Origin: Microthyrium microscopicum
Lineage: Eukaryota
DNA: 64,000 nt
Direction: 5' to 3'
NCBI GenBank assembly: GCA_010405405.1
Contig: MU004246.1
Location: 310,001-374,000 of the forward strand
A program made the translations under genes and the position numbers. Positions 4,974 to 52,546 of the stretch are shown here, in pieces (positions within the stretch are counted from its first letter, which is position 1; each line of letters opens with the position of its first letter). The notes below the pieces were generated by a model, which saw nothing but the letters and a program-made list of their open reading frames with translations, was not told where the DNA came from and made no database searches.

Positions 4974-5336
4974 CCTTTTGGTGATATAGAGAAATTACGT
5001 CTGCTGCGATGCGTCAAGAGGGGAATTTGATCTATCGTTGTATATAGTCTATCTCAGCCCATTGTATTAGATTGAATTTGACATGAATCTGAGACTTGAT
5101 GACAGAAATCATACATACGAATAGGTGGAAGTAGCTCCATGAGACATGTAGTCAGACAAGACCTATCTAGCCTCGCGTTAAAGTGTTGTTCAGCACTACT
5201 TAAAACCCAGTATGCAAATAAACGAACTGTAGACTCGTATTATAGCCTATTTGGCCCATGGTAAATATTCTAAACCTGAGATGAACAATTCCAATTAGAA
5301 TGATGAACATCATACGCCATTATATGCAAACGCAAT

Positions 5337-7245
5337 TCATCGGACAAATGAATGTCCATTATTACCCACATTCTCCACGCGGAAACCCAGAGTCGCCATC
5401 CACTTGCTATCAACAATATTCCTGCCATCAAACAGCCACTTTGGATCTCGCATGCCTGCAGCAATCTTCTCCCAGTCTAGAGTACTGTCTGGTCTCACTG
5501 CGGCTGCAGCTGGTGTCTGACAGCGTTGACAGTCCGGAGGGCATTCCGGCGGCTCTACCAAAGGCGAGACAGTCTTTAGTTCTCCGTATATTGTGGGAGA
5601 ATAGGCTGGTTTTGTTGGAACTGGTGATCTGGCGAGAGCTGGATCTGGTATTGATGCATCGATCGATGAGACTGTTGGGGATGTGAGATTGATATCTTGA
5701 GAATCGAGCTTAAGTTTCGATGACTTGAACTGCTCCCAAGGAGTAAGTATGAGAATCGCGCTAGATCCGCTACACGCATCATACACATTGTCGTAGGTAT
5801 GCAGGTTCTGGAACTGTGCGGGCGAGACAAAAGCATCGATGCTGTGTCTGATTTCCAAAGCCGTGCAGCCCGGATCAAAGACCGCAATTTCACTGGGTCT
5901 CTCCTCCGCCAACTTTTGTATGACCTCTATCGCCGGACTCTCGCGAGTGTCGTTGGTGTTCTGCTTGAACGTGTATCCAAGCACGGTGATTTTCTTTCCG
6001 TAGAGCGCACCATTCAGTTTTGAGACAATCTTATCAAGAAATCGTGTCTTTTGAAAGTCGTTGACTGCCAATACCGCCATCCAGTAGTCTGCGACTTCCG
6101 GCAGATGAAGAGAATTGGCGAGATATGTGAGAGCCAAGATATCTTTCTTGAAACATGAGCCACCAAAACCGATGCCGGCTTTGAGAAATTTGCTGCCTAG
6201 CCGACTGTCACTGCCAATTGCTGCTGCCACTTGATCGATTTCAGCGCCCGTTTTGTCGCAGATAGCACTTATGGTGTTGATAGAACTAATTCGCTGGGCC
6301 AGCATAGCATTTGCTACGACTTTGGCGAGTTCGGCAGACCAGGTATTGACCGTCAATATTTTGGACTTATCGATCCACGAGTATATTGACTGGAGCTTTG
6401 CAGCGGCAGCGAAACCAGATGGTGAGCGAGAGGATCCAATGAGAATACGATCAGGGCAGAGTAAGTCTCGAATCGCGCTTCCTTCAGCGAGGAATTCAGG
6501 ATTTGATAGGACCTCGAATTTGTCGTTTGGTCTGTGAACAGCAAACTGATAGGTTAGTAATAAACACTACCCAAGTCTTTTCGTCAGTACTTACAATATC
6601 TTGAATGGTTCGCGCGGTACCACAAGGCACAGTGCTCTTTTCCACAATCACTGCACCAGCGCGTGCAAACTGTGCTATGGTTACAGCCGCACTTTCCAGC
6701 GCTGCAAGGTTTGTAGCGGAGCCTGCTCCAGTCCCATATTCCTTGGTCGGCGTATTGACCGCTATGAAAACGATATCTGCTTCAGAAATACATTTTTCAA
6801 CGTCTGTTGAGAATATCAAGTTCGGCGATCTCTGCGACATTGAGCGTTCGTCAGATCCAGAACTGTGTGTCCTCGAGGCAATGCCATCTCGAGCAATTCG
6901 TACAACATCTTCCAGGCCAGGTTCGTGGATTGGTAGATGTCTTGACTTCCAGCTTTCGATTCGTTCTGAATTTTTGTCTACCACGGAGACTTGAATGTTC
7001 GGGTTTTGATACGCAACCACAGCGGCAGTCGGTCCACCTAAATGGAAATTAGATTGTATTGTTAGTGAAACCTGTTGCCAAAACATACCAACATATCCGG
7101 CACCAACGAAGCATATATTCTGGACACGAGTCTCATCATCTTCGAGAGGCTCTGGAGTAGTGTAACCAGAAGTACTTGGTATCGTCTCGCTACTGGCCTC
7201 AGAGTCTCGTGTAAGGCTAACCGGGCTCGTGTTCCTGGAATTCAT
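5337..7245 (-). CDS. UDP-glucose 6-dehydrogenase
   Basis: Exons 7245-7089, 7037-6595, 6545-5337. Motifs: Rossmann GAGYVGGPT, VNTPT, EKSTVP, SNPEFLAEG, ELAK(VVANA), catalytic GFGGSCFKKD, FKQNTNDTRESP, FDGRN. Confidence 0.95.
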
Positions 7246-7810
7246 AATTCAATATATTAATCGTAGTACTTGGCCAGGACACAGTTTGAAAATGAAAAGG
7301 CACTACATGAGAGGCCAGGAGCCATGTATTTTGAAATAGATTCTATTCATAATGAGAATCATACATCCACTTCCAACATGCGTATATACGGATACACCTG
7401 CACATTTTTTGCTTTCTACCTGCTAAACCCATTATTCGCTTGTTCATTGCCAAGCAGTTTGATGGACAGACCGCGGTAGTTCGGTCAGGAGCTCCAAGAT
7501 ACCTTGCGACTATTTTGGAGCCAATATGGCAGCTGCATGGTTGATAGTCTAGGATCTGCACCACCCATGAAGGTTGCTTGCGCTAATGCAGTCAACCGAT
7601 GAAGAATCCACCAGCCAGCCTTTTCTTTTCACTATCGTGGAACGATAAAAAAGCAAATACTCAATTGTACTATTCGGTATCCGTTTGAGCTGAAATCGAA
7701 AATATTGAATATTTCGTGAGCCATTTCGACTTCAGATAACCTTTCACTCCCAACATCGGACAATTCCAAGATTTTATCGCTCGTTCACGATTTTTACCTG
7801 CATTGTAGAG

Positions 7811-8996
7811 ATGCGCACGAATACGATTCTTTCCCTTGGCCTTTTGGTTTCGGCTGTAGTAGGCGATTCTGCAATTGGTCCCACAACCACTTGCAGCTCG
7901 ACTGGCCTGGTCAACACCAAACCTGGTAATCTGATATGTAAGTTGACACTGAAATCCAGACATCAGGCACTTCCCTAACCAGGCCAAAATAGTTGTCGCA
8001 AATGCCTGGAATGCTGATAGCAATGGGTCGCAGTGTCTATCGGTATGTATGTCCTGAATTGACACAGAGCTGCCAAGTTTGATAGCAAGATACAGGTCAG
8101 TGACGACGCGACTCAATTCAGTGTAACATGGGAATGGCCATCGAAACGAACAGCAGTTCGCTCGTATCCGCATGTTCAATTCAAGTCCAAGGCGTTGCCA
8201 GCTCCCATAGCGGATATCAGCAAAATACAGCTCAAAGGAACCTGGTCTGTAGCAACCACAGCACCTTCCCTGGAATCAACCGATCTGCTGGCAAACATTG
8301 CGTGGGATCTATTCGCAGACCCAGACGCAACCCTCGCAGGGAACGAAAACAAAGCAGGATATGAAATCATGTTTTGGACCGGCAGCTATGGACATCCACA
8401 ACCACTTGGACTCAAGGAAGGGCCGTGTCTGAACACCACAATCAACGACATCGCATAGTAAGTTCTTCCGACAAGCAAAGATAGATCCCCACTCGAAAGA
8501 ATGCTTGCTTGAGATCTTGCATACAAGAATACTGACCAATGGAAATAGTTCCCTGTACTGTGGAACGAATCCAAACCGGGGTTTGAAAACCTTCTCATGG
8601 CTGCCCGCCACAAATGTCACCACGTTCGACATTGACTTCAACCCCATGCTCCAAGCGCTCGTTACTAACGGGTGGGTGCCGGCCAACACCTATGTCGGCA
8701 TGGTAGGATTTGGTACTGAGGCCTTTTATGCGTCTGATAACATAACTTTCACTGCATCCAATTACGGGGTGGATATCGAGGCCACGAACGCTACCACATC
8801 TTCAGGTGGCAGTTTGAAGCCATCTTCGACAAGTTCAGGAGCTTCGACGTCTTCGACCAATGGTGGATCAAAGACAAGTGCAGCTGCATCAAACACTCAT
8901 ACTTCTAGCTGCAGCGGACCGTTCGGAATCATGGGTAAACTGGTTTTGGGTGTTGGTTTGGTGGTAGTTTTCCTTCTTTGCGATACGTTGATTTAA
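7811..8996 (+). CDS. Secreted GH12 endo-beta-glucanase with Ser/Thr-rich stalk and hydrophobic C-terminus (probable GPI anchor)
   Basis: Exons 7811-7937, 7993-8042, 8096-8457, 8549-8996. Signal peptide MRTNTILSLGLLVSAVVG. GH12 motifs NAWN, FSVTWEW, VRSYPHV, ANIAWDLF, YEIMFW (nucleophile E), GFGTEAF (acid/base E). S/T/G-rich tail then LVLGVGLVVVFLL. Confidence 0.88.
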
Positions 8997-10325
8997 GCGA
9001 CGTGTGATAGACGATTTAGCCAATTGTAATGAGCCTAGTTGGGCATTTCTTCCAAAGATGGACTGAGGTTCGCCGATAACAGCGTGGTACTTGAAGATTG
9101 TTGTCAATAATTGATGCGGCGGTTGTAAAAGCAAGGCACGAGGTCGAGCAAGTGGTGCTGGACCCTGGTTCTGCACGTTGCACCCCACGGCTCTTTCCCA
9201 GTACGGAAGTCGCTCGTGTGACAGGGATTTTGCTTGTTCAAGCCATGTTTTGATCAAGCTATTATCAAATCTTATCAGATGATCAGGCACATCCATGAGC
9301 CTCATTGCTTCAAACTTGTTCGACTTTTCACCTGGCTGCTGTTGCCAAGATCAAATTTTCTCTTCGACTCCGGTATCATGGATCTGATAAGCTGAAGCTG
9401 TCCGAGTTCGGCGTCGTTAAAAGCCAACATTGAGACAGAACTGCAAGAGGCTGGCAAGCGCGATTGGTCAACTGCTTGTACCTCCTTGATCAGATAAGAT
9501 CGATTGATAATAGCTTGATATTCTCGCCAACTTCAATCAATTGATCCGCCAACAACTCGACCTGCATCAACATCCATGAATCCATGGGACGCATCAAACA
9601 AGGTGGGCTTGGTGCCAAGCTCGAGAATCTTCAAGAATGGATCATGAGCTTCCCGGTTTTGTTTTCGTGGCGATGATGGGGAAGTCCAAATACCTGGAAA
9701 TGGTCAACATTCTGATCTCTTGCTCTTCCAAGAGATCCCCGAATGACACACGACTGGCTACCTTCACAAATACTTATCTGCCCGAATACCTGTTATCTCA
9801 ACCATGTTAGTCGATCAAATGCAAATAGGATTCCTGAAAAATGCAAAGGGACGCCACATCCTCGTAAGCTAGCATCCTCGGCCACCGAAACGAGTAGTGG
9901 GCATGTCGAAGCGCCTTAGCCGTGTACATGCATATGCACCATCTAGACTTTACCAACTAGTTTGCTTTTTACCGTTGTGTCAATATCACCCTCGACACCA
10001 GTAGAATGTTGCTCGCGTGCCTCGACTATCAGGAGTGGGTATTTGCAACTGTTTGCCGAGTTATCGGACCTAACTCCACTGCTGCAAGCTAGACGCATGA
10101 ATAGGCGAACAAGAAAAAAGCTTGCGTGGAAAAGATGTCTTGGCTGATGTGAATGAAGCAGGTAGTTGTGATTTCGGCGATGCGCGATTCAGAATGTAGT
10201 GACCGGGGGAGCTTGGAAGCCTCTCCGAGTTGTTTTTTGGAATTTCCCGTTTTGGAGCTTGTAACTCTTGGTCCTTGTGTCTATGGTGAATATTGCTCTG
10301 TATAGAACATCGTTCTGTCGGCTTG

Positions 10326-12332
10326 ATGATGTCTGATCAGGACTTGGAAAAGAATACTGCTCCTGAGATGGCGGCTGAAGATGGTCATGCGACACCAACT
10401 TCGGTGGACCAAAAGGAAATATCCAACATTTCAGAGGCAACTCTTGCTCAAGTGAATGATTCTCAAGTAAGACCAGTCAATATGGTTCTAGAGACTATGC
10501 TGACATTTGATAGACATCAATCAGGTTTGGGCACAACGCTCCAGTGACTGATGCTGGTAACCAGAAGAAGTTCGAGAGCGACGTAAAGGAACTGAGGATA
10601 TCGACTTTATCCCATGCTTCAACTTCTTTAAGTGACGAGCCGATCGAGAAAGATGTCGAGAAGCAGGCTGGAGAGTTAGGATTCGAATCCTCAGCTCCAA
10701 GGAAGCGTGGCCCATTCAGTCGACTATACCGCTGGTTCAGACGCTCATACTGCCCATCAGAAGAACCAGCCTTGATTCTTCCCACCGCGCCAACAGACAA
10801 AGAGAAGTATCTGTACCTCCATACCAATCGGATACCGCTGTATATCGTTGGTATATTTGCCTTCTTGAGTCTTTCGGCTGGCATGTGGCTGTTCGTAATC
10901 TGCTCCAAATACATATACTGGTTCGGCGCCTTCACGATCCTCCTACAACTGTATCTCACCATCTCATACTGGGTCGGTGTATGCGGCAAAGACTGGGACT
11001 TTGAAGCTCACAAGGAAGTCCTGAGTAAAAACGTTCTCACAGCTGAAAACGCGCCGAGCGTGGACATCCTGCTTCCATGCTGTATGGAGCCTCTCGAAGT
11101 TCTCGCCAACACATACAAACACATCCAAGCTCTTGACTACCCTGGTCATCTCGAAGTCCACGTTCTTGACGACGGCGACCAAGCAGCTGTTCGTGCTCTA
11201 GCCATCAGCTATGGCTTCAACTACGCCGTCCGCGAAAACAGACCCTTCCTCCGCAAAGCTGGCAACTTGCGCTGGGCGTTTGGTCGAACAACTGGTGCCT
11301 TCTTTGCGATTTTCGACGCAGACTTTTGTCCAAGACCGGACTTTCTCCTCGAAATGCTACCAGAACATCTCGCAGATGATAAGTTAGCACTAGTCCAAAG
11401 TCCTCAATTCTTCCGCACCACCAAAGAACAAACATGGGTCGAGCAAGGCGCCGGAGCAGTCCAGGAGCTCTTCTACCGCGTGGTCCAAGTAAACCGCAAC
11501 CACTGGGGAGCGTCCATCTGCGTCGGCAGCAATGCCGTGTACCGCCGTGCGGCGCTCGAAGCTGTTGGCGGGACTGCAGAAATTGGTTTCTCTGAGGACG
11601 TCCATACCGGGTAAGTCTCCATATTCCCTCGAAGTTCCAAGCTCTTGCTAATGTATCTGCAGATTCGGCGCCGTCTCCCGCGGCTGGAACCTAAAATACA
11701 TCCCCCTCTGCCTCGCCTGCGGCATATGTCCCGACAATCCCCGCTCCTTCTTCAGCCAGCAAATGCGTTGGTGCATGGGCTCCACCACCCTCCTCTTGAA
11801 TCCAGAATTCTGGAAATCGAACCTCACATTCATGCAAAAGCTCTGCTACTCCTGCGGCTTCATGTACTACTCCGCCGTCTCCCTCTCCATCTTCATCAGC
11901 CCCCTCCCGGGTATAATCCTTCTCTGGATCCGGCCCGAACTTTTCAAATACTACAACCTCGCCTTTGCCCTCCCATCCCTCTTCTACGGCATCATCTTGT
12001 ATCCGCTATGGGCGAAGGGTAGATACGGTTTGAATGTGCAGCATATCCAGGTCATACAGAGTTTCGCATACCTCAATGCAATCAAGGATAAACTGCTAGG
12101 CAATGCGTTGCATTGGGCGCCGACGGGAAATGCAAAGGCGCATAAGAGTAACAAGTATCGAAATATGCGGATTCTGGCGTGGTGTTGGTGGTTTATGGTG
12201 TTGGGTGGATTGGTGAGTGCAGTTAGTTGGAGGGTGTTGCATGGGATTCATTGGTATCATACGATACCGTTGATTTTGTTGAATGCTTATAACTTTTATT
12301 TGGCGCATCCTTTTTTGTTTTATTGTGGATAG
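10326..12332 (+). CDS. Processive GT2 glycosyltransferase, cellulose synthase-like (BcsA/CelA-like)
   Basis: Exons 10326-10466, 10514-11610, 11663-12332. Two N-terminal TMs, then VDILLP, LDDG, KAGNL, FDADF, QSPQFF, GSNAVYRR, SEDVHTG, QQMRW (D,D,D,QxxRW signature), then several C-terminal TMs. Confidence 0.93.
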
Positions 12333-13911
12333 GGGGTGGTTTGGTTGGATATAGAGAATGGATTGTTAGCTCCGAGTCCGATTGGGCGGTAATGATAGAT
12401 GGGATATTAGATAGTAATGAAAGTATCTTTGAAGCCAATGAGTGCAATTGCTGCATAGAATATGATACTGATGATCAAAGAGAGTCTGGTTGATAGTAAG
12501 GACGATAAAGCGAGATGTAAGAGAGAGGGGATGAGTTGGGCTGTGATCGGCTTATATGATGATAAGAACATAGCCAAGTCAAACATGAGTAGTTCGCCTT
12601 GCGTATACACCATGCGTACGGCTGATTCGTTCCATAAGTGCATCTAGTGCATCACCAATGATAGTTATTTCTTGAACTAGCGTTGGGACATGGAGCTTAC
12701 ACCGACTAGCAAGGATATTGTAGCTTCGACGACCAATAAGTCTATCAACACTGCGTTGGGTTTTGCAGAAGCTGTAAGATCTCATCCTCGACGATAGGCG
12801 AATTGATTTCTTTCTTAGAGGCCTGAAGCATATCATACGACTGGAACTGTGAAGTGACTGTGAAATGACTTTGAAATGACTGAAAGGCCAATGATTAAGG
12901 TATAAGGAGACTTCGAAGATCTTGTCGTACTGCTAAAGAAGTAAGGTCCGTTTGCTGATTTGAGGAAGAGGACTAAACTGCTCGTACTATTTCTTAGTAT
13001 GGAGCAGCGCAAGGAAATAATTGCATACTTGTCCTGTTGACGCCGTTCAAGCAAGTAACTTAGACGATACTGCTCGGCGAATCCGAACATATACAGGTTG
13101 TGCGTTATTCTGGAAGGACATTGAAAGAAACCTGTATGCCTGCAAACAACTTGCAGAACTGATGCGTCAAGGATTCAATGATACTGGATCTCAGAAGTGG
13201 AGCAGCCCATGCTAAAGGCGGGACGGCTCGCACGATCCTAGCCTTGTTGTTTCAACCAATGTCTCGGAATGTACCATCAAAGAGAGGCAAGGAAACTCCC
13301 AAATCGTGGCAGTCTTTGGCAGGTTCAGTGATCAAATCGTGTTTCGGACTTTGCATGTTTTGGGCGCCTTGTTCAAATCCACACTAGCTCGGTTTGTTGC
13401 TTCAGCATCGAAAGCTCGCTGCAGCCTAGGTTGATTAGATGTGATATCAGCCACTGGAGTCTTTTCCGTAATAGCCTTAAGGATCCATACATCGTAGTCT
13501 TGTTTCACTGGTTGCAGCGGAGGCATCTAGTTCCTCTCTGGGACGATAATACACGTATGAAGGAGATATGTCGTGCAGTGTATTAGAGTATTCTGCCCCT
13601 TTGCCTCAGCAGTTTTCCGGTGTTTGAATATGCCTGGAGAGCAATACCACATATTCATGTCGCAATAGCCTCATAATCACTGGCAAGCTTACGGGGAACT
13701 GAAAATGCATACGCAAGTTGCGCCAGTGTCACTTGTCGGCGTGGATCACAACTTCGACAAAGTCACAGATCGCCCTCAACACTCCACGAAGTCAATGTAA
13801 TAATGGAGGACTGCGAGTGAGATGGAGTGTAGTTGAACGTTGCGGGAGTGGCTTGAAGGCTGCTTAAAGGGGGCCAAAAAGGCTGAATAGCAGAATCTGG
13901 GGCAGACGCAG

Positions 13912-13956
13912 GTGATTGGCGCGCGCTTACCGGTAAGCGGACGTTGACTTCAACGT
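13912..13956. promoter_or_regulatory. CCAAT box (reverse) followed by two adjacent palindromes upstream of the 14532 gene
   Basis: GTGATTGGC, then the perfect 16-bp palindrome CGCTTACCGGTAAGCG (13924-13939) and ACGTTGA-CT-TCAACGT (13941-13956). Regulatory function is inferred only. Confidence 0.3.
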
Positions 13957-14531
13957 AACTTACTGCAGGACTAGGTACTCCTTACACTTCAACGCCAACT
14001 TCTTTTCTACGGCCCGACTTTTAATTATGAGAGGAGGACAGACTTAAATTTTGCTGGATTAGGCTTTTCCATTAACCTGACGGCCGCTTTTACACGCTGG
14101 CTTAGCTGGGCATTCGATACTGGCTTGGAGCCCTACCGTCATCCTAACCAAACTCAATCGTCCACCACCTACAGAAGCCTACACCTCGACAATCTTTAGC
14201 TGCACCATAGGAAAGGACTCCCTTGCTTTCACTCTATCCTCCACAAATCTACCACACTACTCATTAGAGCCTCCATTTCTCCAACGCAAGCCAAGACCCC
14301 ATATATCAGACATTGGCTATCCTTTCTCCCCTGACCCACTATTGGCCACTCGCTGTCCCCAATCTATTGCCGTGCCCCAACTTCTGGTCATCTCCAGCAA
14401 ACTACAATTTCCCACGACATTCGCCAAACGGTCTCGACCACCTCACCCTTTCCTCTCCAAAATCCTACTTCCCCATATCAATCTCCACGCTGGAGCAATC
14501 ATAACATTTCCGGGACCATCTCCCCGGAGCC

Positions 14532-15936
14532 ATGTTTGCCCATTACCTACAAGGGCGCATGGGTCCCAAGACTCCCACGTTTTCACGGCAAACCATATTC
14601 ACAGTCGTTGTCTTCTTCACACTGCTCATCTGGAGCTGGCAAATATTCGGTTCATCGACACCGCGGACGCGCGAAAGTTCGAAACCTTCAGCGCCGATAG
14701 TCGATCCTCTTCCTCCCTACGTCAAACCGCGATATTGGTCCGCTTCACATCTGGGTGGACTTGAAGGCATAAAAGCGTTCCCCAAGCCAGATGGCTTAAA
14801 CAAGATCGTTGCCATAATATTTTATGGACGACCGGCAACAGTCTCAATTCTCGATTGCTACTTGAAGCGGAACTTGATAAAAAATGGGGGAATGCTGGAT
14901 GAGGTTGTTTGGATAGTACGAACCAACGACACATCGCACAAGGCATACCTAGATGTTCTTCTGGCCGAGGAGGACGCATATACCAAATGGAACGTAACAT
15001 TTGGCGAGAACGAGGATTACCGGAGCGCATACGACCGAGTACAAAACGGCACAATGTACATCAAGATAGATGATGATATAGTACGTTCAGCTGCGCCGCA
15101 ATTTTCTTCTGACTCGAATACTAACGTGCTAAATAGGTCTTCATGGAAGATACTGTAATACCGTCCATCGTGGACTCAAAATGGAAGAACCCAGACTACT
15201 TCATCATCTCCGCAAACATCATGAACCAGCCATCACTATCATGGGTTCACTGGCGTCTAGGTGCCGTCCGCCCCTATCTTCCTGAGATAGAACCTGCACC
15301 ACCATCAGACGTCGTCCCAGAAGAACTCCGCGTTGAATGGAAAGCATCAGCGCTCCCTGACTGGACCTCCTCTGATCCCGAATGGATAATGTCACTCGAG
15401 TACATATCACCCTACAAAAAGCACCGATGGCTCCCCGTGAAGTACGACACCTCGAACCGCTCAATCGACGATACACCCATCATATTCACAGATTTCAATG
15501 CTTTCAGTGAAGGTCTTTGGAAATGGACGATCGCGGCGCAGCAGCACTACAGTTTCTTTGAGAATCTGGAAAAGAATGAACTTTGGCGGTATAAGTTCAG
15601 CGAGTGGAACTATAATTATACGCGCATGGGCATACAGTTTGTCGCGATGATGGGCGAGGATATCAATATGGGAAAGCCGATTGTTGAAAGGGATGATGAG
15701 TATTACTTCTCGGAAGTGATGACACAGAAGACATCACGGCGTAAGTTTATCTCATTTCCGGAGCGTATATAACCACTAACAACGAGATAGATGGCGTAGT
15801 AGACGGTCGCTCATTAGTAGCTCACTACAGCTTCAAGCCACAAAGAGACGGCATCGCCAGTACTGACATACTGGATCGATATCGAACCTTTGCGGATGAA
15901 AATATTTGCATACAGCCTGTCCGTCCCATATATTAA
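14532..15936 (+). CDS. Type II membrane protein, putative GT-A fold glycosyltransferase-like
   Basis: Exons 14532-15080, 15137-15740, 15791-15936. Short cytosolic tail, single TM (TIFTVVVFFTLLIWSWQIF), Pro-rich stem, IIFYGR...ILDCYL, YIKIDDDIVFM (DxD-like), C-terminal AHYSFKPQ. Confidence 0.8.
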
Positions 15937-16269
15937 GGACAGCATCGGACTTGCATATACCACGGCGTTCTTCGGGCATATTTTGAACGGCGCATACTGG
16001 GAAGACAACGATTGTTCTCCACGCCTATAGTTGTACCGCTAGGTAATTCAAGGTTGATATGTTCATTTGTTTTTATAGAGCATTACCCATTGGGTCGCAA
16101 CATAGTATTTAAAGCGTATTTGCATTAGGTTGCTTGGTAGGAAATAGATACTATCGATAAAGCAATCGAGAACTATACCCCCTCAACACCGCATCCTTCT
16201 CTTGGACAACTCTTTGTGCCATGCCGAAGTGCCTCCATCACCACGCACATTGTTCACCCTGTCCACTCT

Positions 16270-16637
16270 CTAAACAGTTCCATAACCTGGCGGTGGCGCT
16301 CCTGCAGCTCCAGGCGCAGGCTGGACAACAACGTATTGTTTTCCGCCTCGCTGGACACGGTTCGAGTAGACGCCTGGCGCATCGGGGGAGTAAAGGCCTG
16401 CGCGTGCTTCGTCGCGTTTCTTGAAGTAGATGTATTCGACGTAGAAGGCGTGAACTGGGGTTTCGTAAGCGTCATGATGGGTTTGAGCTGGGGGCAATGC
16501 TTACTATGACCTGGGAAGTACCCAAGAACTGTGAGAAGGATGTTGATGCAGAGATCTGCTCCACAGCCGGCTGTGAGGGCGACGCCAACTGGTGGGAGGA
16601 AGATTGTTATGATTATGAGGAGGATTGCTGAGATCAT
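16270..16637 (-). CDS. Pmp3/UPF0057 family plasma-membrane proteolipid with C-terminal extension
   Basis: Exons 16637-16505, 16454-16270. Sequence IITIFLPPVGV...CGADLCINILLTVLGYFPGHIHAFY; tail ends PPPGYGTV. Confidence 0.9.
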
Positions 16638-16921
16638 TGTCGCGGTTTGTTGGTGTAGGTTGTTGGTGGTTCGTTGTGGTGTTTTTGAGGTATGAGGATG
16701 GAGGTGAAGCGGTGGTTGTTATGTATGTATTGCTGGCGCCTAGGTCCGTGTGGCAATATCAGTGGCTGGGTAGGAGATCAGGCGCGGGAATAATGCTGTT
16801 GTTGTTGGTCTTGGTCTTGGTAACTTGTTTTGGTGGTTAAATGAGAGGCGGTTCGAGCTCTAAGGCTTCAATGCTTGATCCAATCATTGAACAGGCATAC
16901 GTCATCATTGAGCTAAGGCAC

Positions 16922-31337: not shown

Positions 31338-32317
31338 TGTGAGAAGCGTGCCTTTCCTTCGAGTTGTCGAGCGGTTCTTAATACTGCGTATAGTTATCGG
31401 GCCTGATGCCGAAAAATCTGGAGATTGGGTTTCTAAGCGGTTCTGAGAGTGATCTGGAGGTATCTACCTGATCCTCAGTTTAGAAAAGTCATTTCAACAT
31501 GAACTTTTAGCCATTATCAACGAAGTCACTGGGAGGGGATAAGTTCTGTTTTTCATGTTTTATCAATAAAGCTAGGTGTTGGGGAGAAATTATAGGACTC
31601 TACATGAGTTTGGGTAGAGGACTTCTCGATGTATTGAGGTCTGGTTTAGTTTTAGAAAAAATTTGAGATTTTGCTTTTCAAACTGGTTCTTCTGAGCCCA
31701 CAAAACTAAGAACCTTCACTTCTTTTCATTCAGATTGTATGACTACTTTCGTGCTTTCGTGATGCTGTATTCGTAAAACTTGTACCGGTAGGCGGCATCG
31801 TGAACATTTCTTGGCAAAAAGTTGGTGGTGAGTTGGAAACTAAGTTGTGATTGGCCGCATGGTCTAATGCCTGGCATCTAACTTCTTAAGGCCTAGCTCC
31901 AGACGGCACTTGCCGTTTCGCAGTCAAACAGAGCTGCTCCTTCTTCAAACTGTTACGCTTGATCGCGTTCCACTCACTTTCAGCCTTCTTACAGAACCTC
32001 AGCACCACCTCAAATCCATCTCACCCGCCAACTTCACAAGTCGCAACCATCCCATCTCCGGCTATCGCCTTCCTTCTCTCAATCACTACTCCATCGTCGC
32101 CTCTATACCATCATTCCGTCTCAATTTCTCACCTCTCCATCGCGCACTTTCGCTCCTGGCCCCGACACATCCAATAGCGACCTGGGCGGCCTCTTGAAAT
32201 TCTACCACTGTTGCTTTTGACTACAATTAGCCTTCACGGCCTCCGAACACACATATCTGATCTATTCTTGTCTCGCATCAAGTTTGAAGCATCAATTCAT
32301 GGTCTTCCTGGCCCACC

Positions 32318-35300
32318 ATGGCCTCTCCCGCTGAGGCTAACCTCGATGCCTATCTTAGTAGGCTCGACGATGAAAAGCTCGACCTCAAAACGAGAGGCAA
32401 TGTCGCAACCGAAATTCGCGACAACCTTGACGTCTGGTGCCAATCAGGCTCTCCACTCTACAGCGCATTCCTAGAGAAATCCATACCCGTCCTTCTCAAA
32501 ATCCTTGATAGCCCTCCTGTCTTCGATAGCACAAGCCCCGAGCAGCGATTACGAGCATGCGTCCTCGACATCCTTCATCGGCTCCCTGCCACTCCCGATC
32601 TTAACGAATCCATCACATTCAAGCTAGTTGACAAGCTCATGACACTGGTTCGGATAGAGAATGAAGATAATGATATATTGATTGTTAAGACACTGATGGA
32701 TCTCCTACGGCATGACTCAAAAGTGCTGAAGGAACGAGTGCAAGCTTTTTTGGACGTTATAGTAGAAATGTTTCAAATGATGAGCGGCACTGTAGAAGAG
32801 ACATTTGATGGTCCATCACAGCATCAGCCTGCTATATCTACGCCTGGAAATCAGTATGCTCAATCGCCGCGACCAAGTAGCCCTGTCTCGACAATGTCTA
32901 CTGAAATTGGCAATGAGCAACAACAATCTCGCCATCTCCTCAAGGGTATGCAATCTTTCAAAGTCGTCGCAGAGTGTCCCATAATAGTGATATCACTTGT
33001 TGGCCCATTGGATCGCGCAGTCACTCAGACATACGTTAAAAAGTTTGTTCCTCTGATGAAGGATTTGTTGATGCTACAAGCCAAACCTCAGGAACGAGCT
33101 CATGAAGAGGCCAAAGCTCGTGGGGACATTCACACCGGTGTCTGCAAAGATATCAAGAACAAGGCGGCCTTCGGTGATTTCATCTGGCTTCAGGTTAAGA
33201 CCATGAACTTTTTGGCATATCTACTTCGGGTTTATACGCAACAACTCCAAGATTTCTTGCCATCTCTGCCGGCCATTGTTGTTCGCCTACTTCGGGACAT
33301 TCCTCGCGAAAAGTCTGGCGCTAGAAAGGAGCTTTTCGTTGCTGTTCGACATATCATCAATTTCAACTTTCGGAAAATCTTTCTTCCCAAGCTGGACGAG
33401 TTGCTCGATGTTCGAACTCTCATCGGTGACGGCCTCACGGTATACGAGACTATGCGTCCCTTGGCCTATAGCATGCTTGCCGACCTTATACACCACCTTC
33501 GAGATAGTCTGAAGCCTGAGCAAATTCGTATGACCATTCAAGTCTACACGAAAAATCTCCACGATGACTTCCCTGGCACTAGCTTCCAGACCATGAGTGC
33601 AAAGTTGCTCATAAACATGGATGCTTGTATTGGAAAGATACAACCAAAAGAAGAGGCTCGACATTGCATTATTATGATTTTGAATGCGATTGCCGACAAG
33701 TTCGCTGCGATGAACTCGCAGTTCGAGAACGCTTCCAAAGTGTCAAAACAAACGCCAGTCCTTGGTCCTGGTGAAGTGATTAAGGAGACCTATATGGCCG
33801 AAAAGGATAGCCCTCCAGACTGGGATGAAGTTAGCATTTTCGCTGCCACTCCAATCAAGACGCAGAGCCCGCGCGAGAGAACGACAAATCCGGTCAATGA
33901 CAACAAGTTCTTGTTTAAAAACCTCATTGCTGGATTGAAGTCTCTGTTTGCACAGCTTCGAAACACCAATCCTGATCCTCTTCCAGATGCAGATCCTAGC
34001 ATTCTGCCCAAGAACTGGGACGACTGTGCGTTTGGTTTTAGTCCAGAGGAGGTCAATATCTTGACCAAGCTATTCCGCGAAGGAACTCAAGCTTTTCGTT
34101 ACTATACCGAGGGCGACTTACCGGACACTTCCAAGTTGACGACTGCTGAAATCCTCAGTGGCGGCCACAACCTCCCAGCTGGCTCTAAAGAGGAGAAAGA
34201 ATTGCTGGAGTCTTTTGCTACAGTCTTCCACCAGATTGATCCAGCCACCTTTCAAGAAATCTTTCAGTCGCAGATTGGTCATCTCTTTGATCTCTGCGTG
34301 ATTCATCCTTCTCTTCTTCATATTGCACAATTTCTGCTGGCGAGCGAGGCCACCAGCGCCAGCCTCTGCAGTATATTGTTTCAATTCCTAATGGAGCACT
34401 TTGAAGAAATTGGCAGCTCAAATGTAAAGAGAGCCTCAATCCTATTGAGATTGTTCAAATTGTCCAGCATGGCGGTCACACTATATTCCAGTCAAAATGA
34501 GCAGGTTATCCTACCGCACACTACCAAAATCATCACGCAATCCATTCAATTGTCAACGACGGCAGAAGAGCCCATAAACTACTTCCTCCTCCTTCGCTCT
34601 CTTTTCCGAAGCATTGGTGGGGGCAGATTTGAGCATCTGTATAAGGAGATCCTTCCCCTTCTTGAAATGGTGCTCGATACTCTCAATACGCTTCTTCATG
34701 CAGCACGCAAACCCTCAGATCGAGATTTGTTTGTGGAACTTATTCTCACAGTTCCAGCGCGACTAAGTCATTTATTGCCGTACTTGAGCTATCTTATGCG
34801 ACCTCTCATTGTTGCGCTTCGTAGTGGTTCCGAGCTTGTTGGTCAAGGGCTGAGAACGCTTGAGCTCTGCATCGATAACCTACAACAAGACTTTATTGAT
34901 CCATTGACGGCACCTTTCATAGAAGAATTGATGACTGCTCTTTGGGGTCATTTGAAGCCCGCTCCTTACCAACACTTCCACTCGCATACCGCTATGCGTA
35001 TTCTTGGGAAACTCGGAGGTAGAAATCGCAAGTTCTTGACTGGCATACACAATCTCGACTACAAGGCATATACTGATGATGATGCGAGTTACGACATTCG
35101 ACTTGTTGGAACCACTAAAGATCGCGCATTTCCCGCTGCTATTGGCGTTGATGCTGCCATTACCAAGCTCAAGGAGGTTCCTGGCAAGATCAAAGACTCG
35201 TCAAAAGCTGCTGCTATGAAGGCTTCCGATCCATTCCACAAACGCCAAGCTTTCAAGTTCATACAGTCGCAGACCAAGCTTTTCATTTCAATGGAGAACC

Positions 35301-38300
35301 TGCCAGATGACTTTGCGCAAATGGTTCGCCTTCAAGCTCAAGATCTGCTTGCTGGCAAGGTCGATTTGGGCGAGGATTTCAGTCACATTTCCGAGCGCGA
35401 GAAATCGCCAATCAAATGCAACGTGGAACATGATATGCTGAAAAAGCTGCTCAAGGCTCTTCATTTTGCACATTCGCTTCCAGACCTGAGAGATGAGGCT
35501 GCAGCATTTCTGACCGGACTGTGCAAGCATTTCATGATCTTGGAAGTAGGACGAACCTTTGCGATCCTTAAGCATCGGAACACTTTCAACGTTAAAGGCG
35601 GCGAAGGCCCACTTTTTATTGAAAGTAAGGTGATTGCAGATGCCATTTCCGAATCACTGTCCTCGGATTGTCCCGAGGAGCGCGAAGCTGCACAAGCGTC
35701 TATTCGCACTCTTTGGGAGTCTGCTGGTATCATCTTGGGCAACCAGGTTCATGCCAATCGCATCACCTTCTTCGTCCATTTGACGCGAAATTTCACTCAT
35801 GCCTGCCACCAGGAAGAATGGTACACCAAGATGGGCGGTGTTTTGGGTCTCAAGTCGATCGTCAAAGATATTTCCTTCTCGGACCAGTGGATGAATGAGC
35901 GACTCTCCGAGATCATGCGAGCACTTTTGTTCGTCTTGAAGGATATGTCTCCGGATCTAACAGCATCACCGCGACTGGAAGCTGAGGCCATTCTTGAGAC
36001 TGTCATTCGACGACTTGCCAAGGGGTTCAAAAAGGAAGACCTGACCGTCCAGAACAGCAAGTTCTATGCTCTCAACAAATCTCTTGTCATGGAGCTTGCG
36101 CATCCTGTCAAGTACGTGCGAGCTATGACCAAGAAACTCTACCACATACTTTCCGAGGAGCTAGAACTTTCTATTGTGGAGTTGATTCAGCCAGTTAGAG
36201 AGGGCCTTCTTCTGCCAATGTTCAACAAGCCTCTGCGAGCTTTACCTTTTGGTATTCAGATCGGATACGTGGATGCTATCAACTATCTCATGAATCTCGA
36301 TCAGGCCCTTGTACCGCATGAAGAGCCACTTAGCCGACTTATTTTGGAAGCTTTGTTCCTCGCGGACTCTGAAGATGCCTCTTTGGCTGAAAATCACAAT
36401 GAGTATCGAAAAGCAGAGAGCATTGTTCAACTGCGAGTCGGATGCATCAAACTCTTGTCAACGGTGCTTACTTATCCTGAATACCAGACAGCTCCGCCAA
36501 ATAATACGAAGAACCGGATAATCTGCGTGTTTTTCAAGGGCATCTACATGAAGTCACCGGAAGTCGTCGATGCTGCAAATAATGCTCTGAAAGGGGTCAT
36601 TTCTGTTGCCAACAAGCTTCCCAAGGATATTCTACAGAATGGATTGCGGCCTATCCTGCTTAATTTGCAGCATCCCACTAAGCTCAGTGTAGAGAGTCTA
36701 GAAGGCCTCGCCCGCTTACTGAAGCTATTGACCTTTTACTTCAAGGTTGAGATCGGGCAACGTTTGCTTGACCATACAAAAGTCTTCATGGAAGCGCCGG
36801 TCTTACAAAAAGCCTCTTTCCAATTGATCGAACAGAATCGACCAATGCAAGTTGTTGCCGCCATCATCAACATCTTCCACCTCCTTCCTCCCACCGCCAA
36901 CATGTTCCTTCCGACTCTAGTTACCAAAGTGCTTGAGCTAGAGTCGGCACTCCGTCGTACTCACATCAGCCCCTTCCGTGAGCCACTCATTCGTTACCTC
37001 AACCAATATCCCAAGGAGATGTTTGAATACATTTCTCCCTTCATGCAAGATCTCAAGCTTGGTCGCTTTTTCGGTCAGCTATTGGCGGGTCCGAAAGCAG
37101 ATGCGCTTCGAAACGCCGTCTACAGTGAGCCTGACAAGCTGGTGAAGGCCTTTGTCACACCATCAGATGCAGCCGATCGCCTCAATCGGGGCGTCAATGC
37201 CATACATATCGCATACTCCATCTCAACCCACGAAAAGACCAAAGATCTGCTAGTCAAGAGTGAGCCTCTTCGCAAGGCTTTGTTTGAGGCAGGCCAAAGC
37301 GTTGAGAAACTATTACGGGATAGCGAGAAGCCCAAGACAGCTTTTCAGTCCCAGACGCAGGTTGAACTCAGCACCAATCTTCGTCTCGCAGCCGAGCAAG
37401 CGGGAGAGCAGATTATTGATCTTCTAATGATTTACATGGAACAGGAGCCAACCAACACCGATTTCTTCTTTGAAATTGTTGACGCTGTTACATCTCAACG
37501 ACTGAAGAACCGGCCTTCCTTGATCAAATTCATCTACAAGTCCATGATCTGCTCCGAGAATATGGACTACTGCCGCACTCTGGTCCTCAAGTGCATCACT
37601 CAATTCCGCAAACCTTCAACAACGCAGCGAGTCAAAGCGTATCTCTTCAAAAATGTTGTCAATCCAATCTTTGCCATGGATGTTCAGCGAAACTGGGATT
37701 CGTTGTTCGAGCCCGACTTTAGAAACACCAAGCTTCTTGACAAGAACATGATTACCATTATCCACGAGCAACTTTGGCGGCCGTCGTCCGTTGAAGGTAA
37801 CGAGGAGATCAGTGTCTATGTCGATCATTCCCGGATGGAACTATTGCAGCTCACTGCTTTGCTCCTCAAATACTATAACCACCCCCTTCAAGAAACTCGC
37901 AAAGATATAATCAAATTTGGCTGGAATTGGATCAAATTAGAAGATGTGGTCAACAAGCATGCGGCGTATGTGGTTATCTCTTACTTCATCACATTCTACG
38001 ATACACCAGCCAAGATCTCGATGACAGTCTACCAATCATTATTAAAGGCACATCAAGCCGAAGGTAGACCGCTTGTCACGCAGGCCTTGGACTTGTTGGC
38101 TCTGGTCATCAAGAAGCGAGTTGCTACCGATCAACATAAGCTTCCACTCTGGGCTAGAATGCCAAAACGGATCATTGCTGAAGAAATCAACAATCTGCAG
38201 CAGCTCGTTTCAATCTTCAACTTCTTCTGTCGTCATCCTGATCTCTTCTACGAGGCTCGCGAGGCATTAGCTCCAGCAATCATTCCTCATCTTCAAAAGA

Positions 38301-41300
38301 TAGCATCCTCCAACAATGAAGGCAAGCGAACATCCCTGCTACTGGCTACATTAGTATGGACATGGGAAGAGCGTGGAAACTTGGAAAGTCGAACCTCTCC
38401 AACAGCATCACCATCTGGCACCAAGCGTAAGTCCGACGGATCACCCATAATCAAAGCAGATCAACTACCACCTTCAGCAACCTGTGTTGGTAATACCAGC
38501 TTGAGACTGATGCTGGTAAAGTATCTTGCGCAGTTCGCAGTAACCTTGCCAGAACGATATCCAACTCCTGCCGCGACAATTCGAGAGAAATATCCCCCTC
38601 CCGTCCTCCCCCCCGCAAAATCTAGTCCATTTTGCCAGAAAGCTGTGCATTTGCTGCGAAACTTCCTGGGCAAGGCATACTGGGCCGACCTTAATATCTT
38701 CGTGCTGGTTCCCCGTATTTGTAAGCCGATGCTAGTCACGGACAAGCAAGATGAAGAAAAAAAGGAAGCGTATGAGACGAAAATCGTGAACACGCTCCAG
38801 GTTCTCAAGGTCTTTGTTAATGCCAAGTCGAACGAGTGGATCACGGAGCATTTGTCTGAGCTTTGGACTTGCATTGAGAAACCACTCAAGATGGAAGATG
38901 CGCAGATTCAGGATTGTCTGCACAGTGAAGGTGACGACTCAGACAAAGCTATGATCCCTCTGTTCCGACGCTTGCTGGATGTTATTCCTGAGAGCCCTGC
39001 AATGGAGCCTGATGATGACAAGGATGAGTCGCCTGGCACGCAGTTCATGACATCCGTCAACTCGATTGTCACGGATGCACTTGAGAAGAACAACCTGATC
39101 TGTGGCATCAATATATTGTCCACGATTTGCAAGATTAGACCGAAGGATGTTGATCAGCATGTTCCTGCCTTGACCAAGGTTTTCAATACGACCGGCAAAC
39201 TGCTCAAGGACCATATCCTGGCAAATCCTGTGCAAACTCCAGTGCCTGTTAGACAGGACTCTACGTCAGTCATGGAAGCTTATGACAATGAAGTACAGAC
39301 CGGAATCTTGCTAAAGACCATCGATATCATGGCCGCGCGCATGGAGAGCCTAGGCGAACAACGTCGACCATTCCTCACCACACTAGCCACGCTTCTCGAG
39401 CGGAGTCGCAGCGAGCCTGTGTGGAACAAGGTTCTCGATCTTGCCCAAGGATGGGTATTCAATAACGATGTTCTCCCAACTCTTAAGGAGAAGGTTGCTG
39501 TTCTCAGTAAAATGCTCATGGCAGAACAACGACCCGACATGCAGGATATTCTCCAGCGGTTCTTCCAGCTTGTCCTTAAAGTCTATGAGGATCAACGTGT
39601 TACTCGCACGGAACTCACTGTTAGACTCGAGCAATCGTTCTTGGTGGGCTGTCGGTCGTCGAATGTGGACATTCGGAATAAGTTTTTAGGTATCTTTGAT
39701 CGACATATTAGTCCGTCGCCGAATACTCGATTGAACCATGTTCTTTGCGATCAGGACTGGAATGTGCTGCAAGAGAGCTTTTGGTTGTCGCAGGTCATAC
39801 ATCTTCTGTTCGGTTCGCTCGATATGAATGCTCCTGTTCAACTCGACAAGGAGGACTTCAAGACTATGTCCGCTCTCTCATACTTTGGTCCCTTTGCTAA
39901 GGATTCGAGATTGAGCGATGTTATGGTGGATGATAAGCTAGAGGAATTCATGGCCGATCACAAATCGTTCTGCAACGAGATCTCCGAAGTCAAATTGCGG
40001 GATATCATGGATCCTCTCAATCAACTCCAACACGTCGACCGCGAGCTTGCATCAAGCATCTGGATTGCCTTGTTCCCGATCTTCTGGGCAAACATACCCA
40101 AGGATGAACGTCGTGAATATGAGAGTAGCATAGCTCAACTATTGGCAAGAGACTTCCACATGAGACAGCTCGACCAACGACCAAACTGTATTCAAACCCT
40201 TCTGGAAGGTCTGGTTCGCGCAAAGCCACGGTTCAAGTGCCCTCCACATCTGGCAAAGTATCTTGCAAAGACTTATGATGCCTGGTATGTTGCCGCCGAC
40301 TTCTTAGAAGAGGCGGCAAACTCGCCACTTGTAGATACTCCTGCTGTCCGTGAAAGCACTCTCGATGCTTTACTGGACATCTACTCCAGTTTGGAAGAAA
40401 CGGATATGTTCTATGGTACTTGGCGCCGACGATGTCAGTATGTTGAAAGCAATGCCGCCCTGTCCTATGAGCAACTTGGCATGTGGGAGAAGGCCCAGCG
40501 CATGTACGAACAGGCACAAGTCAAGGCCCGAACTGGAGCACTGCCTTTCTCACAGAGCGAATACATGCTATGGGAAGATCACTTCGTAATCTGCAGCCAA
40601 AAGCTGCAACAGTGGGATGTCCTCGCCGATTTTGCCAAGCATGAGAACTTTAACGATCTGTACATCGAGGCAATGTGGCGCAATCCAGATACGTGGGTTT
40701 CGACCAACGAACGCGAACAGTTTGACAGTATGATCAAGGCTGTCAGCGATGCGTTGACACCCCGTAGAGCATTCTTCCAAGCTTTCATGGCATTCCTCAA
40801 GATGCACTACAAGGTCGGCGGTGCAGACAATCAAGGACCTCAAGAATTTAGCAAGTCCCTTGATGAGGCTATCCAGATCACCGTCCGCAAATGGCATCAA
40901 CTACCGAAGCGAATCACCAATGCACATATCCCACTTCTGCAGCAGTTTCAACATATTATTGAGCTGATGGACGCTCAGAATGTGTCGAATGTGCTCGCTC
41001 AGACCAACCTTGCCAACTTGGATCAGAAGTCCAACGAACTTAAGTTGCTCTTCCAGCAATGGCGCGATCGACTGCCCAACTTTTGGGACGACATCAATAC
41101 ATGGCAAGACATCGTCACCTGGCGTATGCACATTTTCACTCTTGTCAATAACCAGTTTTTGCCTATAATACAGTCCAATAACCCACCAAACTCAGCAAAT
41201 CCGTCAAACCAGAACTCTCATGCTTATAGAGGTTATCACGAAATGGCGTGGATCATAAATCGATTCGCCCATGTCGCACGCCTGCACAATCTGCATGATG

Positions 41301-52082: not shown

Positions 52083-52546
52083 ATTCCTGGATTTTTGAAG
52101 GTTTTCCAGGGAAAGGTGATGTTGGCTTGGCTTTTCTGGTGCAGTAATTGGACAGTGTCAGGCGATGAGGGCCAGCTTATAATAATGTTTGGGGTTAGAC
52201 CGGTAAGATCTTCCGATATTAATGAAATTCCATATTAACACTTACCCACTGACCCGTATAGACAGCATACATCGCAGGACGTCTGAGATTGCACCAGTAT
52301 TTTAAGAATTTGCCGTCTTGGAAGGGTACGCAACCTCACTTTGGTTCGTGTAACTACCTTACCTACCTACCTAGTATCTTGCAGACCCGGTGCTCTGGTT
52401 GTTTTTACCAAGTTTTGCCTTTGTAAAACTCTGCATCGATGTCAAGATAGCAGGACGCAGCTGCAATAGCTCGCAACTGAATTAGTCAATTGACCTTGGA
52501 CCGTATGTAACCAGGACTGGACAACAATCTTGAACATCGATTCATC

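Follow-up and report, generated by a model that had tools for sequence, protein, structure and literature searches.

UDP-glucose dehydrogenase, GH12, and BcsA-like GT2 genes form a conserved unit in Pezizomycotina, with a possible role in synthesis of a glucuronic acid-containing beta-glycan

We analyzed a 64,000-nucleotide stretch of the genome of Microthyrium microscopicum, a leaf-litter fungus of the Dothideomycetes (assembly GCA_010405405.1, contig MU004246.1, positions 310,001 to 374,000), which is referred to below as the window and is numbered from its first nucleotide. Three neighboring genes in it encode a predicted UDP-glucose 6-dehydrogenase (UGD), a putative glycoside hydrolase of family GH12 (here called GH12), and a cellulose synthase-like glycosyltransferase of family GT2 (here called GT2). 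Judging from their arrangement in other fungi, these three genes are a conserved, functionally linked unit of Pezizomycotina. On balance, and with modest confidence, we favor the view that the unit makes an extracellular, synthase-dependent beta-glycan with glucuronic acid (GlcA) among its sugars, which is trimmed by the GH12. The cluster would then bring together a synthase, a precursor enzyme, and a glycanase, and it is linked to the old question of the ascomycete polyuronide. A full-text search, whose coverage lies outside subscription journals, found no description of a UGD-GH12-GT2 cluster.

Conservation of the UGD, GH12, and GT2 genes in fungi

Filamentous fungi seldom keep polysaccharide synthesis genes in conserved clusters. 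Scanning metagenomes with an alignment of the GT2 yielded 80 loci, with flanks of up to 10 kb on either side. These were searched with the models of the three genes and of a fourth window gene, G4 (see below), and their GT2 cores were placed in a tree together with named proteins. Every linked fungal locus falls into one 49-row GT2 clade (Shimodaira-Hasegawa-like approximate likelihood ratio [SH-aLRT] support, 89), which includes the window protein and covers Dothideomycetes, Sordariomycetes (including a Neurospora tetrasperma protein), Leotiomycetes, and Phaeomoniella. The clade contains 24 metagenome loci, and in 12 of them the sequence upstream of the GT2 extends to at least 4.8 kb. Among these 12, 11 have UGD (all but L022) and 11 have GH12 (all but L018, which shares an identical GT2 core with Aureobasidium pullulans). 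The synteny check proposed in a preliminary description of this DNA is positive across Dothideomycetes, Sordariomycetes, and Leotiomycetes. Two clade loci with shorter flanks have GH12 only (L005 and L019), and in the 9 clade loci that lack both genes the sequence upstream of the GT2 is no longer than 3.2 kb.

The gene order of the window, UGD on the minus strand followed by GH12 and GT2 on the plus strand, is also that of L002, L004, L007, L008, L009, L011, L012, and L013. UGD lies downstream of the GT2 in L010, and the Leotiomycete-like loci L016 and L017 are rearranged to GH12-GT2-UGD, with the three genes still inside 10 kb. Several linked loci are near-duplicates, and the set corresponds to approximately 8 distinct taxa besides the window. 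The genes flanking the triplet vary between linked loci and lineages, which argues that its linkage exceeds inherited block synteny. Neither UGD nor GH12 is found in any of the 17 loci of a sister clade (Pezizomycetes and Agaricomycetes) and a paralogue clade (Lecanoromycetes, Zymoseptoria, Teratosphaeria, and Immersiella), 5 of which have 10-kb flanks on both sides.

Fused GH12 and GT2 Pfam domains occur in 8 of the best 120 longer GT2 homologues listed. These models (P0001, P0009, P0010, P0017, P0019, P0024, P0052, and P0053) come from eight species, belonging to Glonium, Staphylotrichum, Achaetomium, Podospora (P. conica), Echria, Thermothielavioides, Grosmannia, and Whalleya, and in all 4 that were inspected for order the GH12 orthologue part precedes the GT2 part. 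Since a stop codon separates GH12 from GT2 in the window and no splice joint connects them, the fused models are probably annotation merges of adjacent genes.

Predicted properties of the three proteins

The exons of the four gene models were joined by hand at GT..AG sites, and every reading frame closes. Introns in this fungal DNA are short, and in the four-gene region (positions 5337 to 15936) UGD is on the minus strand and the other three genes are on the plus strand.

The GT2 gene (exons 10326-10466, 10514-11610, and 11663-12332) encodes 635 amino acids in 3 exons. The protein matches PF00535 (E value, 6.7e-18), PF13632, and PF13506, and it has DDG at residue 266, DAD at 315, SED at 407, and QQMRW at 445, as well as the motifs KAGN, QSPQ, and CVGS. 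The D,D,D,QxxRW signature is thus intact, as the preliminary description had it, and its four elements align with the corresponding motifs of BcsA. At least five hydrophobic segments lie on both sides of the GT-A domain. There is no PilZ domain: exon 3 matches no Pfam family, and the protein stops after the last hydrophobic segment. The nearest solved sequences are BcsA of Escherichia coli and Rhodobacter, and the orthologue P0010 matches 7lby with an E value of 1e-40.

The fold was tested on the AF2 model of the orthologue P0014, which is 63% identical over exon 2, and not on the window protein itself. This model has a predicted local distance difference test (pLDDT) score of 74.8, and its residues 1 to 147 are disordered. 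The N terminus of the window GT2 is probably disordered as well, since the matching part of the P0014 model has a pLDDT below 50. The best Foldseek match of the model is BcsA (E value, 2.3e-23; template modeling [TM] score, 0.53 to 0.55), followed by CesA, hyaluronan synthase (HAS), and barley CslF6. Based on its motifs, its hydrophobic helices, and the modeled fold of its orthologue, the GT2 is best described as a BcsA-like processive synthase with a predicted polymerizing activity.

UGD (minus strand, exons 7245-7089, 7037-6595, and 6545-5337; 602 amino acids in 3 exons) contains three UDPG_MGDP_dh domains by Pfam (E values, 5.6e-31, 2.9e-23, and 8.4e-31). Its nearest solved structures are animal UDP-glucose dehydrogenases (UGDH; 2o3j, E value of 1.8e-93), and both the NAD-binding motif GAGYVGGPT and the catalytic-cysteine motif GFGGSCFKKD are intact. 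The best NCBIfam matches are models of UDP-glucose 6-dehydrogenase, with scores under the bacterial equivalog cut-offs, as is expected for a eukaryotic enzyme with exon 3 alone used as the query. These features indicate that UGD is a eukaryotic-type UDP-glucose 6-dehydrogenase (EC 1.1.1.22). It has an N-terminal extension of ~40 amino acids and an insert of ~95 amino acids ahead of the last conserved segment, both of which are absent from the solved UGDH matches. The insert (residues ~470 to 565; window positions 5337 to 5800) is rich in proline and serine and carries a CPPDCQRC motif. The insert region is also aligned in the linked UGDs of other loci by tblastn (in L002, query residues 41 to 597).

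The GH12 gene (exons 7811-7937, 7993-8042, 8096-8457, and 8549-8996) encodes 328 amino acids in 4 exons. Exon 3 matches PF01670 with 35.6 bits (the cut-off is 27), and exon 4 matches it with 20.2 bits, which is under the cut-off. When exon 3 was compared with the PDB, 18 of the 20 matches with an E value of 1 or less were GH12 enzymes, the best being the beta-1,3-1,4-glucanase 7ee2 (E value, 9e-9). Many solved GH12 structures are matched by the fused model P0010 (best E value, 3.3e-16). These comparisons identify the window protein as a divergent member of the GH12 family. Both catalytic glutamates are present, E149 in YEIMFW and E237 in GTEAF; we take the glutamate of E-x-M-x-W to be the nucleophile and that of G-T/S-E to be the acid/base. 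Both positions are kept in all 13 linked metagenome copies, and in the eight fused models the nucleophile motif is present in every one and the acid/base motif in 7. The hydropathy profile has an N-terminal signal-like segment (residues 5 to 24), a serine-rich stretch, and then a hydrophobic tail (residues 301 to 328), a pattern that points to a putative glycosylphosphatidylinositol (GPI) anchor.

Transcripts of the locus

A public sequencing run, X1, which is labeled "RNA?", contains 0.89 of the sampled words of the four-gene region. We take this run to be spliced RNA because its contigs lack all of the predicted introns. Exactly the 9 predicted introns (9/9, with GT..AG or CT..AC ends) are skipped in these contigs, including both introns of UGD, all three of GH12, and both of GT2, so the gene models are confirmed by spliced transcripts. 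Together with the closed reading frames and the Pfam matches of UGD, GH12, and GT2, this bears out the four genes that the preliminary description had placed in the region.

A single X1 contig of 7,461 nucleotides spans positions 5119 to 12977 without a break and covers UGD, the divergent spacer, GH12, the 1.3-kb GH12-GT2 spacer, and GT2; G4 is on a different contig. The divergent spacer between UGD and GH12 (7246-7810) is exactly 565 bp from start codon to start codon, the length first given for it, and lies fully inside the contig, which is uninterrupted over 7087 to 7937. The contig is also continuous over 8549 to 10466, across the whole plus-strand spacer between GH12 and GT2 (8997-10325). 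This spacer could be a long GT2 5' untranslated region or read-through. Its open reading frames (ORFs) match no Pfam family, and no splice joint in the X1 contigs connects the GH12 and GT2 reading frames. The unbroken contig suggests that the divergent 5' ends overlap and that GT2 has a very long leader or is reached by read-through from GH12. Per-contig depth in this run does not rank the expression of the genes.

Regulation of the probable Neurospora crassa orthologues

In N. crassa, gld-2 (NCU08228, a UDP-glucose dehydrogenase gene) and gt2-4 (NCU08226) are among only 26 direct targets of the repressor NUC-3 reported by Huberman et al. (mBio 2025; PMC12506109). A single NUC-3 peak from DNA affinity purification sequencing (DAP-seq) lies 1,308 bp upstream of the ATG of NCU08228, 518 bp upstream of that of NCU08227, and 2,671 bp upstream of that of NCU08226; the three rows have identical q-values and enrichment, and NCU08227 is labeled "hypothetical protein" (PMC12506109). 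In the window, 2,515 bp separate the ATG of GH12 from that of GT2, and the N. crassa distances fit the window layout of a UGD divergent from GH12 and GT2. Based on synteny, annotation, and the tree position of the N. tetrasperma protein, we infer that NCU08228, NCU08227, and NCU08226 are the orthologous triplet. A CACGTG box of the NUC-3/NUC-1 type is absent from the UGD-GH12 spacer of the window and of 6 linked loci.

Deletion of nuc-3 raises NCU08228 by a log2 value of 2.61 and NCU08226 by one of 2.57, i.e., approximately six-fold (PMC12506109). After 4 h of phosphate starvation NCU08226 and NCU08228 are down (log2 values of -1.13 and -1.02, respectively), and they are low at 12 h (PMC12506109). 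Across the 18 samples, the transcripts-per-million (TPM) values of NCU08226 and NCU08228 are near-equal in most samples and correlate with an r of 0.87 (0.93 on a log scale). A phosphate-sparing role of the kind played by teichuronic acid was considered and rejected, because NCU08226 and NCU08228 fall on starvation and are repressed by NUC-3.

Elsewhere, ncu08226 is one of seven GT2 candidates and is upregulated in perithecia (PMC6796803), and the only phenotype noted for the NCU08226 deletion strain is "significantly increased biomass production" (PMC3364853). The N. crassa regulatory study names two of the cluster genes and ties them neither to a polymer nor to the gene between them (PMC12506109).

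Relatives of the GT2 outside fungi

Seven metagenome loci with high G+C content and an actinobacteria-like character have UGD beside the GT2 (L061, L062, L064, L067, L069, L071, and L075), in many cases together with an AT3-SGNH acyltransferase and GH6. In L064 (1972-7531), an AT3-SGNH acyltransferase, a GT2, a GH6, and a UGD form a compact array by Pfam. L062 (8177-16877) is an actinobacteria-like GT2 locus of the same general kind, and in L075 the GT2 and an acyltransferase are in a single ORF.

When the actinobacterial GT2s were scanned against prokaryote genomes, one per species, a further 80 loci were obtained (L081 to L160), nearly all from Actinomycetota, and 8 kb around each GT2 was examined. 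The genera include Modestobacter, Nocardioides, Actinoplanes, Curtobacterium, Cellulomonas, Rhodococcus, Frankia, and Kineosporia. The neighbors of the GT2 include an AT3 acyltransferase in 56 of the 80 loci, GH6 in 8, and GH16 in 3; UGD is near the GT2 in 24, three of which are short partial matches. The fungal GH12 is in none of the 80. These GT2s belong to the same subfamily as the window protein, with 42 to 53% identity to its core, and the motifs (I/L)FDADFCP and HSEDVHTG are common to both groups. The fungal and bacterial loci are also alike in that UGD and a cellulase-family hydrolase recur beside the GT2. They differ in that the commonest bacterial partner, the O-acyltransferase, is absent from the fungal cluster and that the hydrolase is GH6 instead of GH12. 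The Actinomycetota GT2/AT3/UGD/GH6 loci look like an undescribed acylated exopolysaccharide system by gene content, and we know of no characterized member. The CslA-GlxA-CslZ system of Streptomyces also includes a GH6 and resembles them in this respect.

Other metagenome loci have different dehydrogenases. In L044 (4559-12988), genes for a TviC-like epimerase and a TviB-like UDP-GlcNAc 6-dehydrogenase come after the GT2; the shorter L046 has the TviB-like dehydrogenase alone beside the GT2, and in L037 and L053 another NDP-sugar dehydrogenase adjoins it. Approximately 2.5 kb beyond these genes, L044 also has an ORF with a phage SPP1 gp7-type minor capsid domain, so that a viral or prophage context is possible for this locus. 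From these neighborhoods, a nucleotide-sugar 6-dehydrogenase is the recurring companion of this GT2 subfamily across kingdoms, and a cellulase-family hydrolase also recurs through nonhomologous families, GH12 in fungi and GH6 or GH16 in bacteria.

Cellulose synthase-like proteins of brown algae (Ectocarpus, Pylaiella, and Scytosiphon; P0095, P0101, and others) are 49 to 57% identical to the GT2 core and group with the fungal and chytrid members of the subfamily, not with plant CesA.

Comparison with characterized systems

Among characterized synthases, BcsA is the closest solved sequence and fold to the window GT2 and its orthologues. Processive synthases are paired with an extracytoplasmic endoglucanase in the BcsA/BcsZ and CesA/KORRIGAN systems, as the GT2 is with GH12 here; BcsZ (GH8) and KORRIGAN (GH9) are endoglucanases that act with cellulose synthases. 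This analogy is strengthened by the actinobacterial relatives, in which the GT2 lies beside UGD and a GH6 glucanase. Unlike BcsA, however, the window GT2 has no PilZ domain and, within the window, no BcsB-like partner, and the hydrolase is GH12 rather than GH8 or GH9. A further difference from the cellulose systems is that UGD, which is not needed for cellulose, belongs to the fungal unit.

A single processive GT2 encoded beside a UDP-glucose dehydrogenase is also found in streptococcal hasA-hasB, which makes hyaluronan, and in pneumococcal type 3 cps3S-cps3D, which makes cellubiuronic acid, a beta-linked polysaccharide in which GlcA and Glc alternate. A hydrolase partner is not known in those operons, whereas the fungal unit is eukaryotic and consists of three separate intron-bearing genes. 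HAS is also a weaker match than BcsA in both sequence and fold (Foldseek E value, ~1e-14).

The nearest fungal comparison is with the mixed-linkage beta-glucan synthase Tft1 of Aspergillus fumigatus (AfTFT1), called CelA in Aspergillus nidulans, which is likewise a membrane cellulose synthase-like GT2 and is described as similar in structure to CslF6. AfTFT1 is the only characterized fungal BcsA-like GT2, and members of its lineage are reported to be 70 to 96% identical to it (10.64898/2026.09.17.752320). Orthologues of Tft1 are reported in Aspergillus, Penicillium, Trichoderma, and Metarhizium (PMC4344333). We examined the best 120 of 420 and the best 120 of 2,792 GT2 matches, all at least 43% identical, and these best 240 contain no protein from any of these four genera or from other Eurotiales. 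The absence of taxa with reported Tft1 orthologues from these matches suggests that the window GT2 lies outside the AfTFT1 lineage. The neighbor of celA is a DUF3431 gene (PMC5519750), and DUF3431 was found neither in the window nor in the flanks of L004, L016, L027, L035, and L040. The Tft1 paper mentions neither UGD nor GH12, and Tft1 has no reported linkage to them, in which it differs from the unit described here.

Proposed function and alternatives

In the mechanism that we favor, cytosolic UGD would convert UDP-glucose to UDP-GlcA near the membrane. The BcsA-like GT2 would polymerize UDP-GlcA, alone or with UDP-glucose, and the chain would leave through the transmembrane channel of the synthase itself. 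On the outer face, GH12, held by a GPI-like anchor, would cut or transfer the nascent chain, a part like that of BcsZ and KORRIGAN in cellulose synthesis. We infer the donor specificity, the polymer structure, the GPI anchor, and the role of GH12. The presence of GlcA in the product is argued from the linkage of the dehydrogenase gene and from the near-equimolar co-regulation of UGD and GT2, and the GH12 and GH6 partners speak for beta-linked glucose in the backbone. Both the UGD and the glucanase partners would be accommodated by a chain of mixed Glc and GlcA, like the pneumococcal type 3 polysaccharide.

Several points weigh against this reading. The co-regulated module proposed in the preliminary description is supported at the UGD and GT2 positions of N. 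crassa, whose transcripts are correlated, and only weakly at the GH12 position: NCU08227 has low transcript levels, which follow those of its two neighbors poorly (r of 0.28 with the GT2 and -0.01 with UGD), and it changes in the nuc-3 deletion by a log2 value of 0.68 with an adjusted P value of 0.10 (PMC12506109). The assignment of NCU08226 and NCU08227 to the GT2 and GH12 of this family is itself drawn from synteny and annotation. A single multigene X1 contig does not prove either a single transcript or equal expression of the genes. The orthologues of Pezizomycetes and Agaricomycetes have no UGD linkage, and among the bacterial relatives such linkage is far from universal, being seen at 24 of 80 loci. 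The use of UDP-GlcA by the GT2 is a prediction. GH12 and GH6 are families of neutral beta-glucan hydrolases, and a pure glucuronan would not be expected to be their substrate. Finally, AfTFT1 alone, expressed in Komagataella, makes a neutral mixed-linkage glucan (10.64898/2026.09.17.752320).

The main alternative, which we consider less likely, is that UDP-glucose is the sole donor of the GT2, that its product is a mixed-linkage or cellulose-like beta-glucan trimmed by GH12, and that the linkage of UGD has another cause, such as a shared promoter, balance of the UDP-glucose pool, or supply of UDP-GlcA for another glycan or a glycolipid. The product of AfTFT1 in yeast is in line with this (10.64898/2026.09.17.752320), as are the best solved match of the window GH12, the beta-1,3-1,4-glucanase 7ee2, and the beta-glucanase character of both hydrolase families. 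In addition, lichenin is the major polysaccharide of N. crassa perithecial walls (PMC13608387), and ncu08226 is among the GT2 genes upregulated in perithecia (PMC6796803). However, a neutral product leaves unexplained why a nucleotide-sugar 6-dehydrogenase recurs as the neighbor in fungi, in Actinomycetota, and in other branches, and why UGD and GT2 transcripts are near-equimolar and co-regulated in N. crassa. Moreover, the taxa with Tft1 orthologues (PMC4344333) are those missing among the best 240 GT2 matches.

Far less probable is a nonpolymerizing glucuronosyltransferase that adds a single GlcA to a lipid, a sterol, or a protein, with GH12 acting elsewhere. There are precedents for its parts: CSyGT, a plant enzyme derived from cellulose synthases, uses UDP-GlcA on small acceptors, the saponins (PMC7669905), and GlcA-containing glycolipids are cited for Aspergillus fumigatus (PMC4059230). 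Yet the GT2 retains QQMRW along with all of the transmembrane helices of a BcsA-like protein, and its fold is nearest to those of processive synthases. The conserved partner is of an endo-glycanase family with intact catalytic residues, which is sensible only for a polymer, and the bacterial relatives are paired with a polysaccharide-type O-acyltransferase. A separate UGD-GT1 pair is described in other ascomycetes (PMC4059230), although a glycolipid role for that pair is a guess. The last alternative, that the three genes are neighbors through inherited gene order without a shared function, draws on the long blocks of gene order that related fungi keep and on the near-duplicates among the metagenome loci, but it is highly improbable given that the triplet persists while its flanking genes differ, that the rearranged Leotiomycete-like loci still hold the three genes within 10 kb, that UGD and a glucanase are independently associated with the GT2 in Actinomycetota, and that the N. 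crassa genes have a common regulator peak and are co-regulated.

The GlcA-containing beta-glycan that we favor has a possible counterpart in wall chemistry. Cell walls of Neurospora, Fusarium, Aspergillus, and other fungi are reported to include glucuronic acid, and the nature of the polyuronide is called unknown (10.64898/2026.02.21.705424). A broader proposal, which we put forward tentatively and rate somewhat below an even chance, is that the triplet is the long-missing gene set for the ascomycete wall polyuronide and that the GT2 subfamily consists of polyuronide synthases that recruit nucleotide-sugar 6-dehydrogenases. Under this proposal, a single BcsA-like synthase would polymerize UDP-GlcA, alone or alternating with UDP-Glc, and the subfamily would take in the fungal crown clade, the Actinomycetota loci, the branches linked to TviB-like dehydrogenases, and the brown-algal cellulose synthase-like proteins.

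The triplet provides candidate genes for the makers of GlcA polymers of ascomycete walls, in a model organism with existing knockouts, and the parallel actinobacterial loci offer a second, genetically easy route to the chemistry. The results also suggest that fungal cellulose synthase-like GT2s are not all mixed-linkage glucan synthases. This bears on how fungal wall genomes are read, on the recognition of fungal glycans by plant immunity, and on antifungal targets.

A fourth gene and other features of the window

Downstream of the GT2, G4 (plus strand, exons 14532-15080, 15137-15740, and 15791-15936) encodes 432 amino acids in 3 exons. Its exon 2 (201 residues) is 100% identical to the M. microscopicum hypothetical protein BT63DRAFT_124844, which is also 432 amino acids long. 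G4 has one N-terminal hydrophobic segment (residues 21 to 41) and DDD at residue 180, and it matches no Pfam family. Its AF2 model (pLDDT, 89.4) has a GT-A fold, with Foldseek matches to GT-A enzymes that are distant (TM scores, 0.34 to 0.39), and its relatives in the Atlas are only ascomycete "hypothetical protein" clusters. The first view of G4 as a glycosyltransferase-like type II membrane protein with a DDD motif is in keeping with these features, and on the strength of the model it is an unclassified GT-A family of its own. The doubt expressed at the outset about its membership in the cluster was justified. G4 is near the GT2 in none of the 160 loci (80 from metagenomes and 80 from actinobacterial genomes), and in all 3 species for which both the GT2 and the G4 orthologue are listed (Trichodelitschia, Eremomyces, and Macrophomina) the contigs that carry the two differ in length. 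G4 is an unrelated neighbor outside the conserved unit.

The four genes had also been described as consecutive. All four are present, but a spliced minus-strand transcript interrupts the row between GT2 and G4. Its introns, within 13424-13648, are seen as joints in the X1 contigs at 13424/13490 and 13592/13648, with CT..AC ends and weak depths of 23 and 16. It contains no convincing ORF, the longest spliced one being 85 amino acids, and it may be a noncoding RNA or a small-protein gene.

From 17 to 32 kb of the window, no ORF of at least 110 amino acids has a Pfam match. Elsewhere, the window encodes a Pmp3 proteolipid (16257-16718), Tra1 (32288-43918, an open frame of 3,877 amino acids), a HET-domain protein (46382-48409), a DUF2264 protein (49779-52157), a catalase (54754-56586), and a cutinase (61919-62410).

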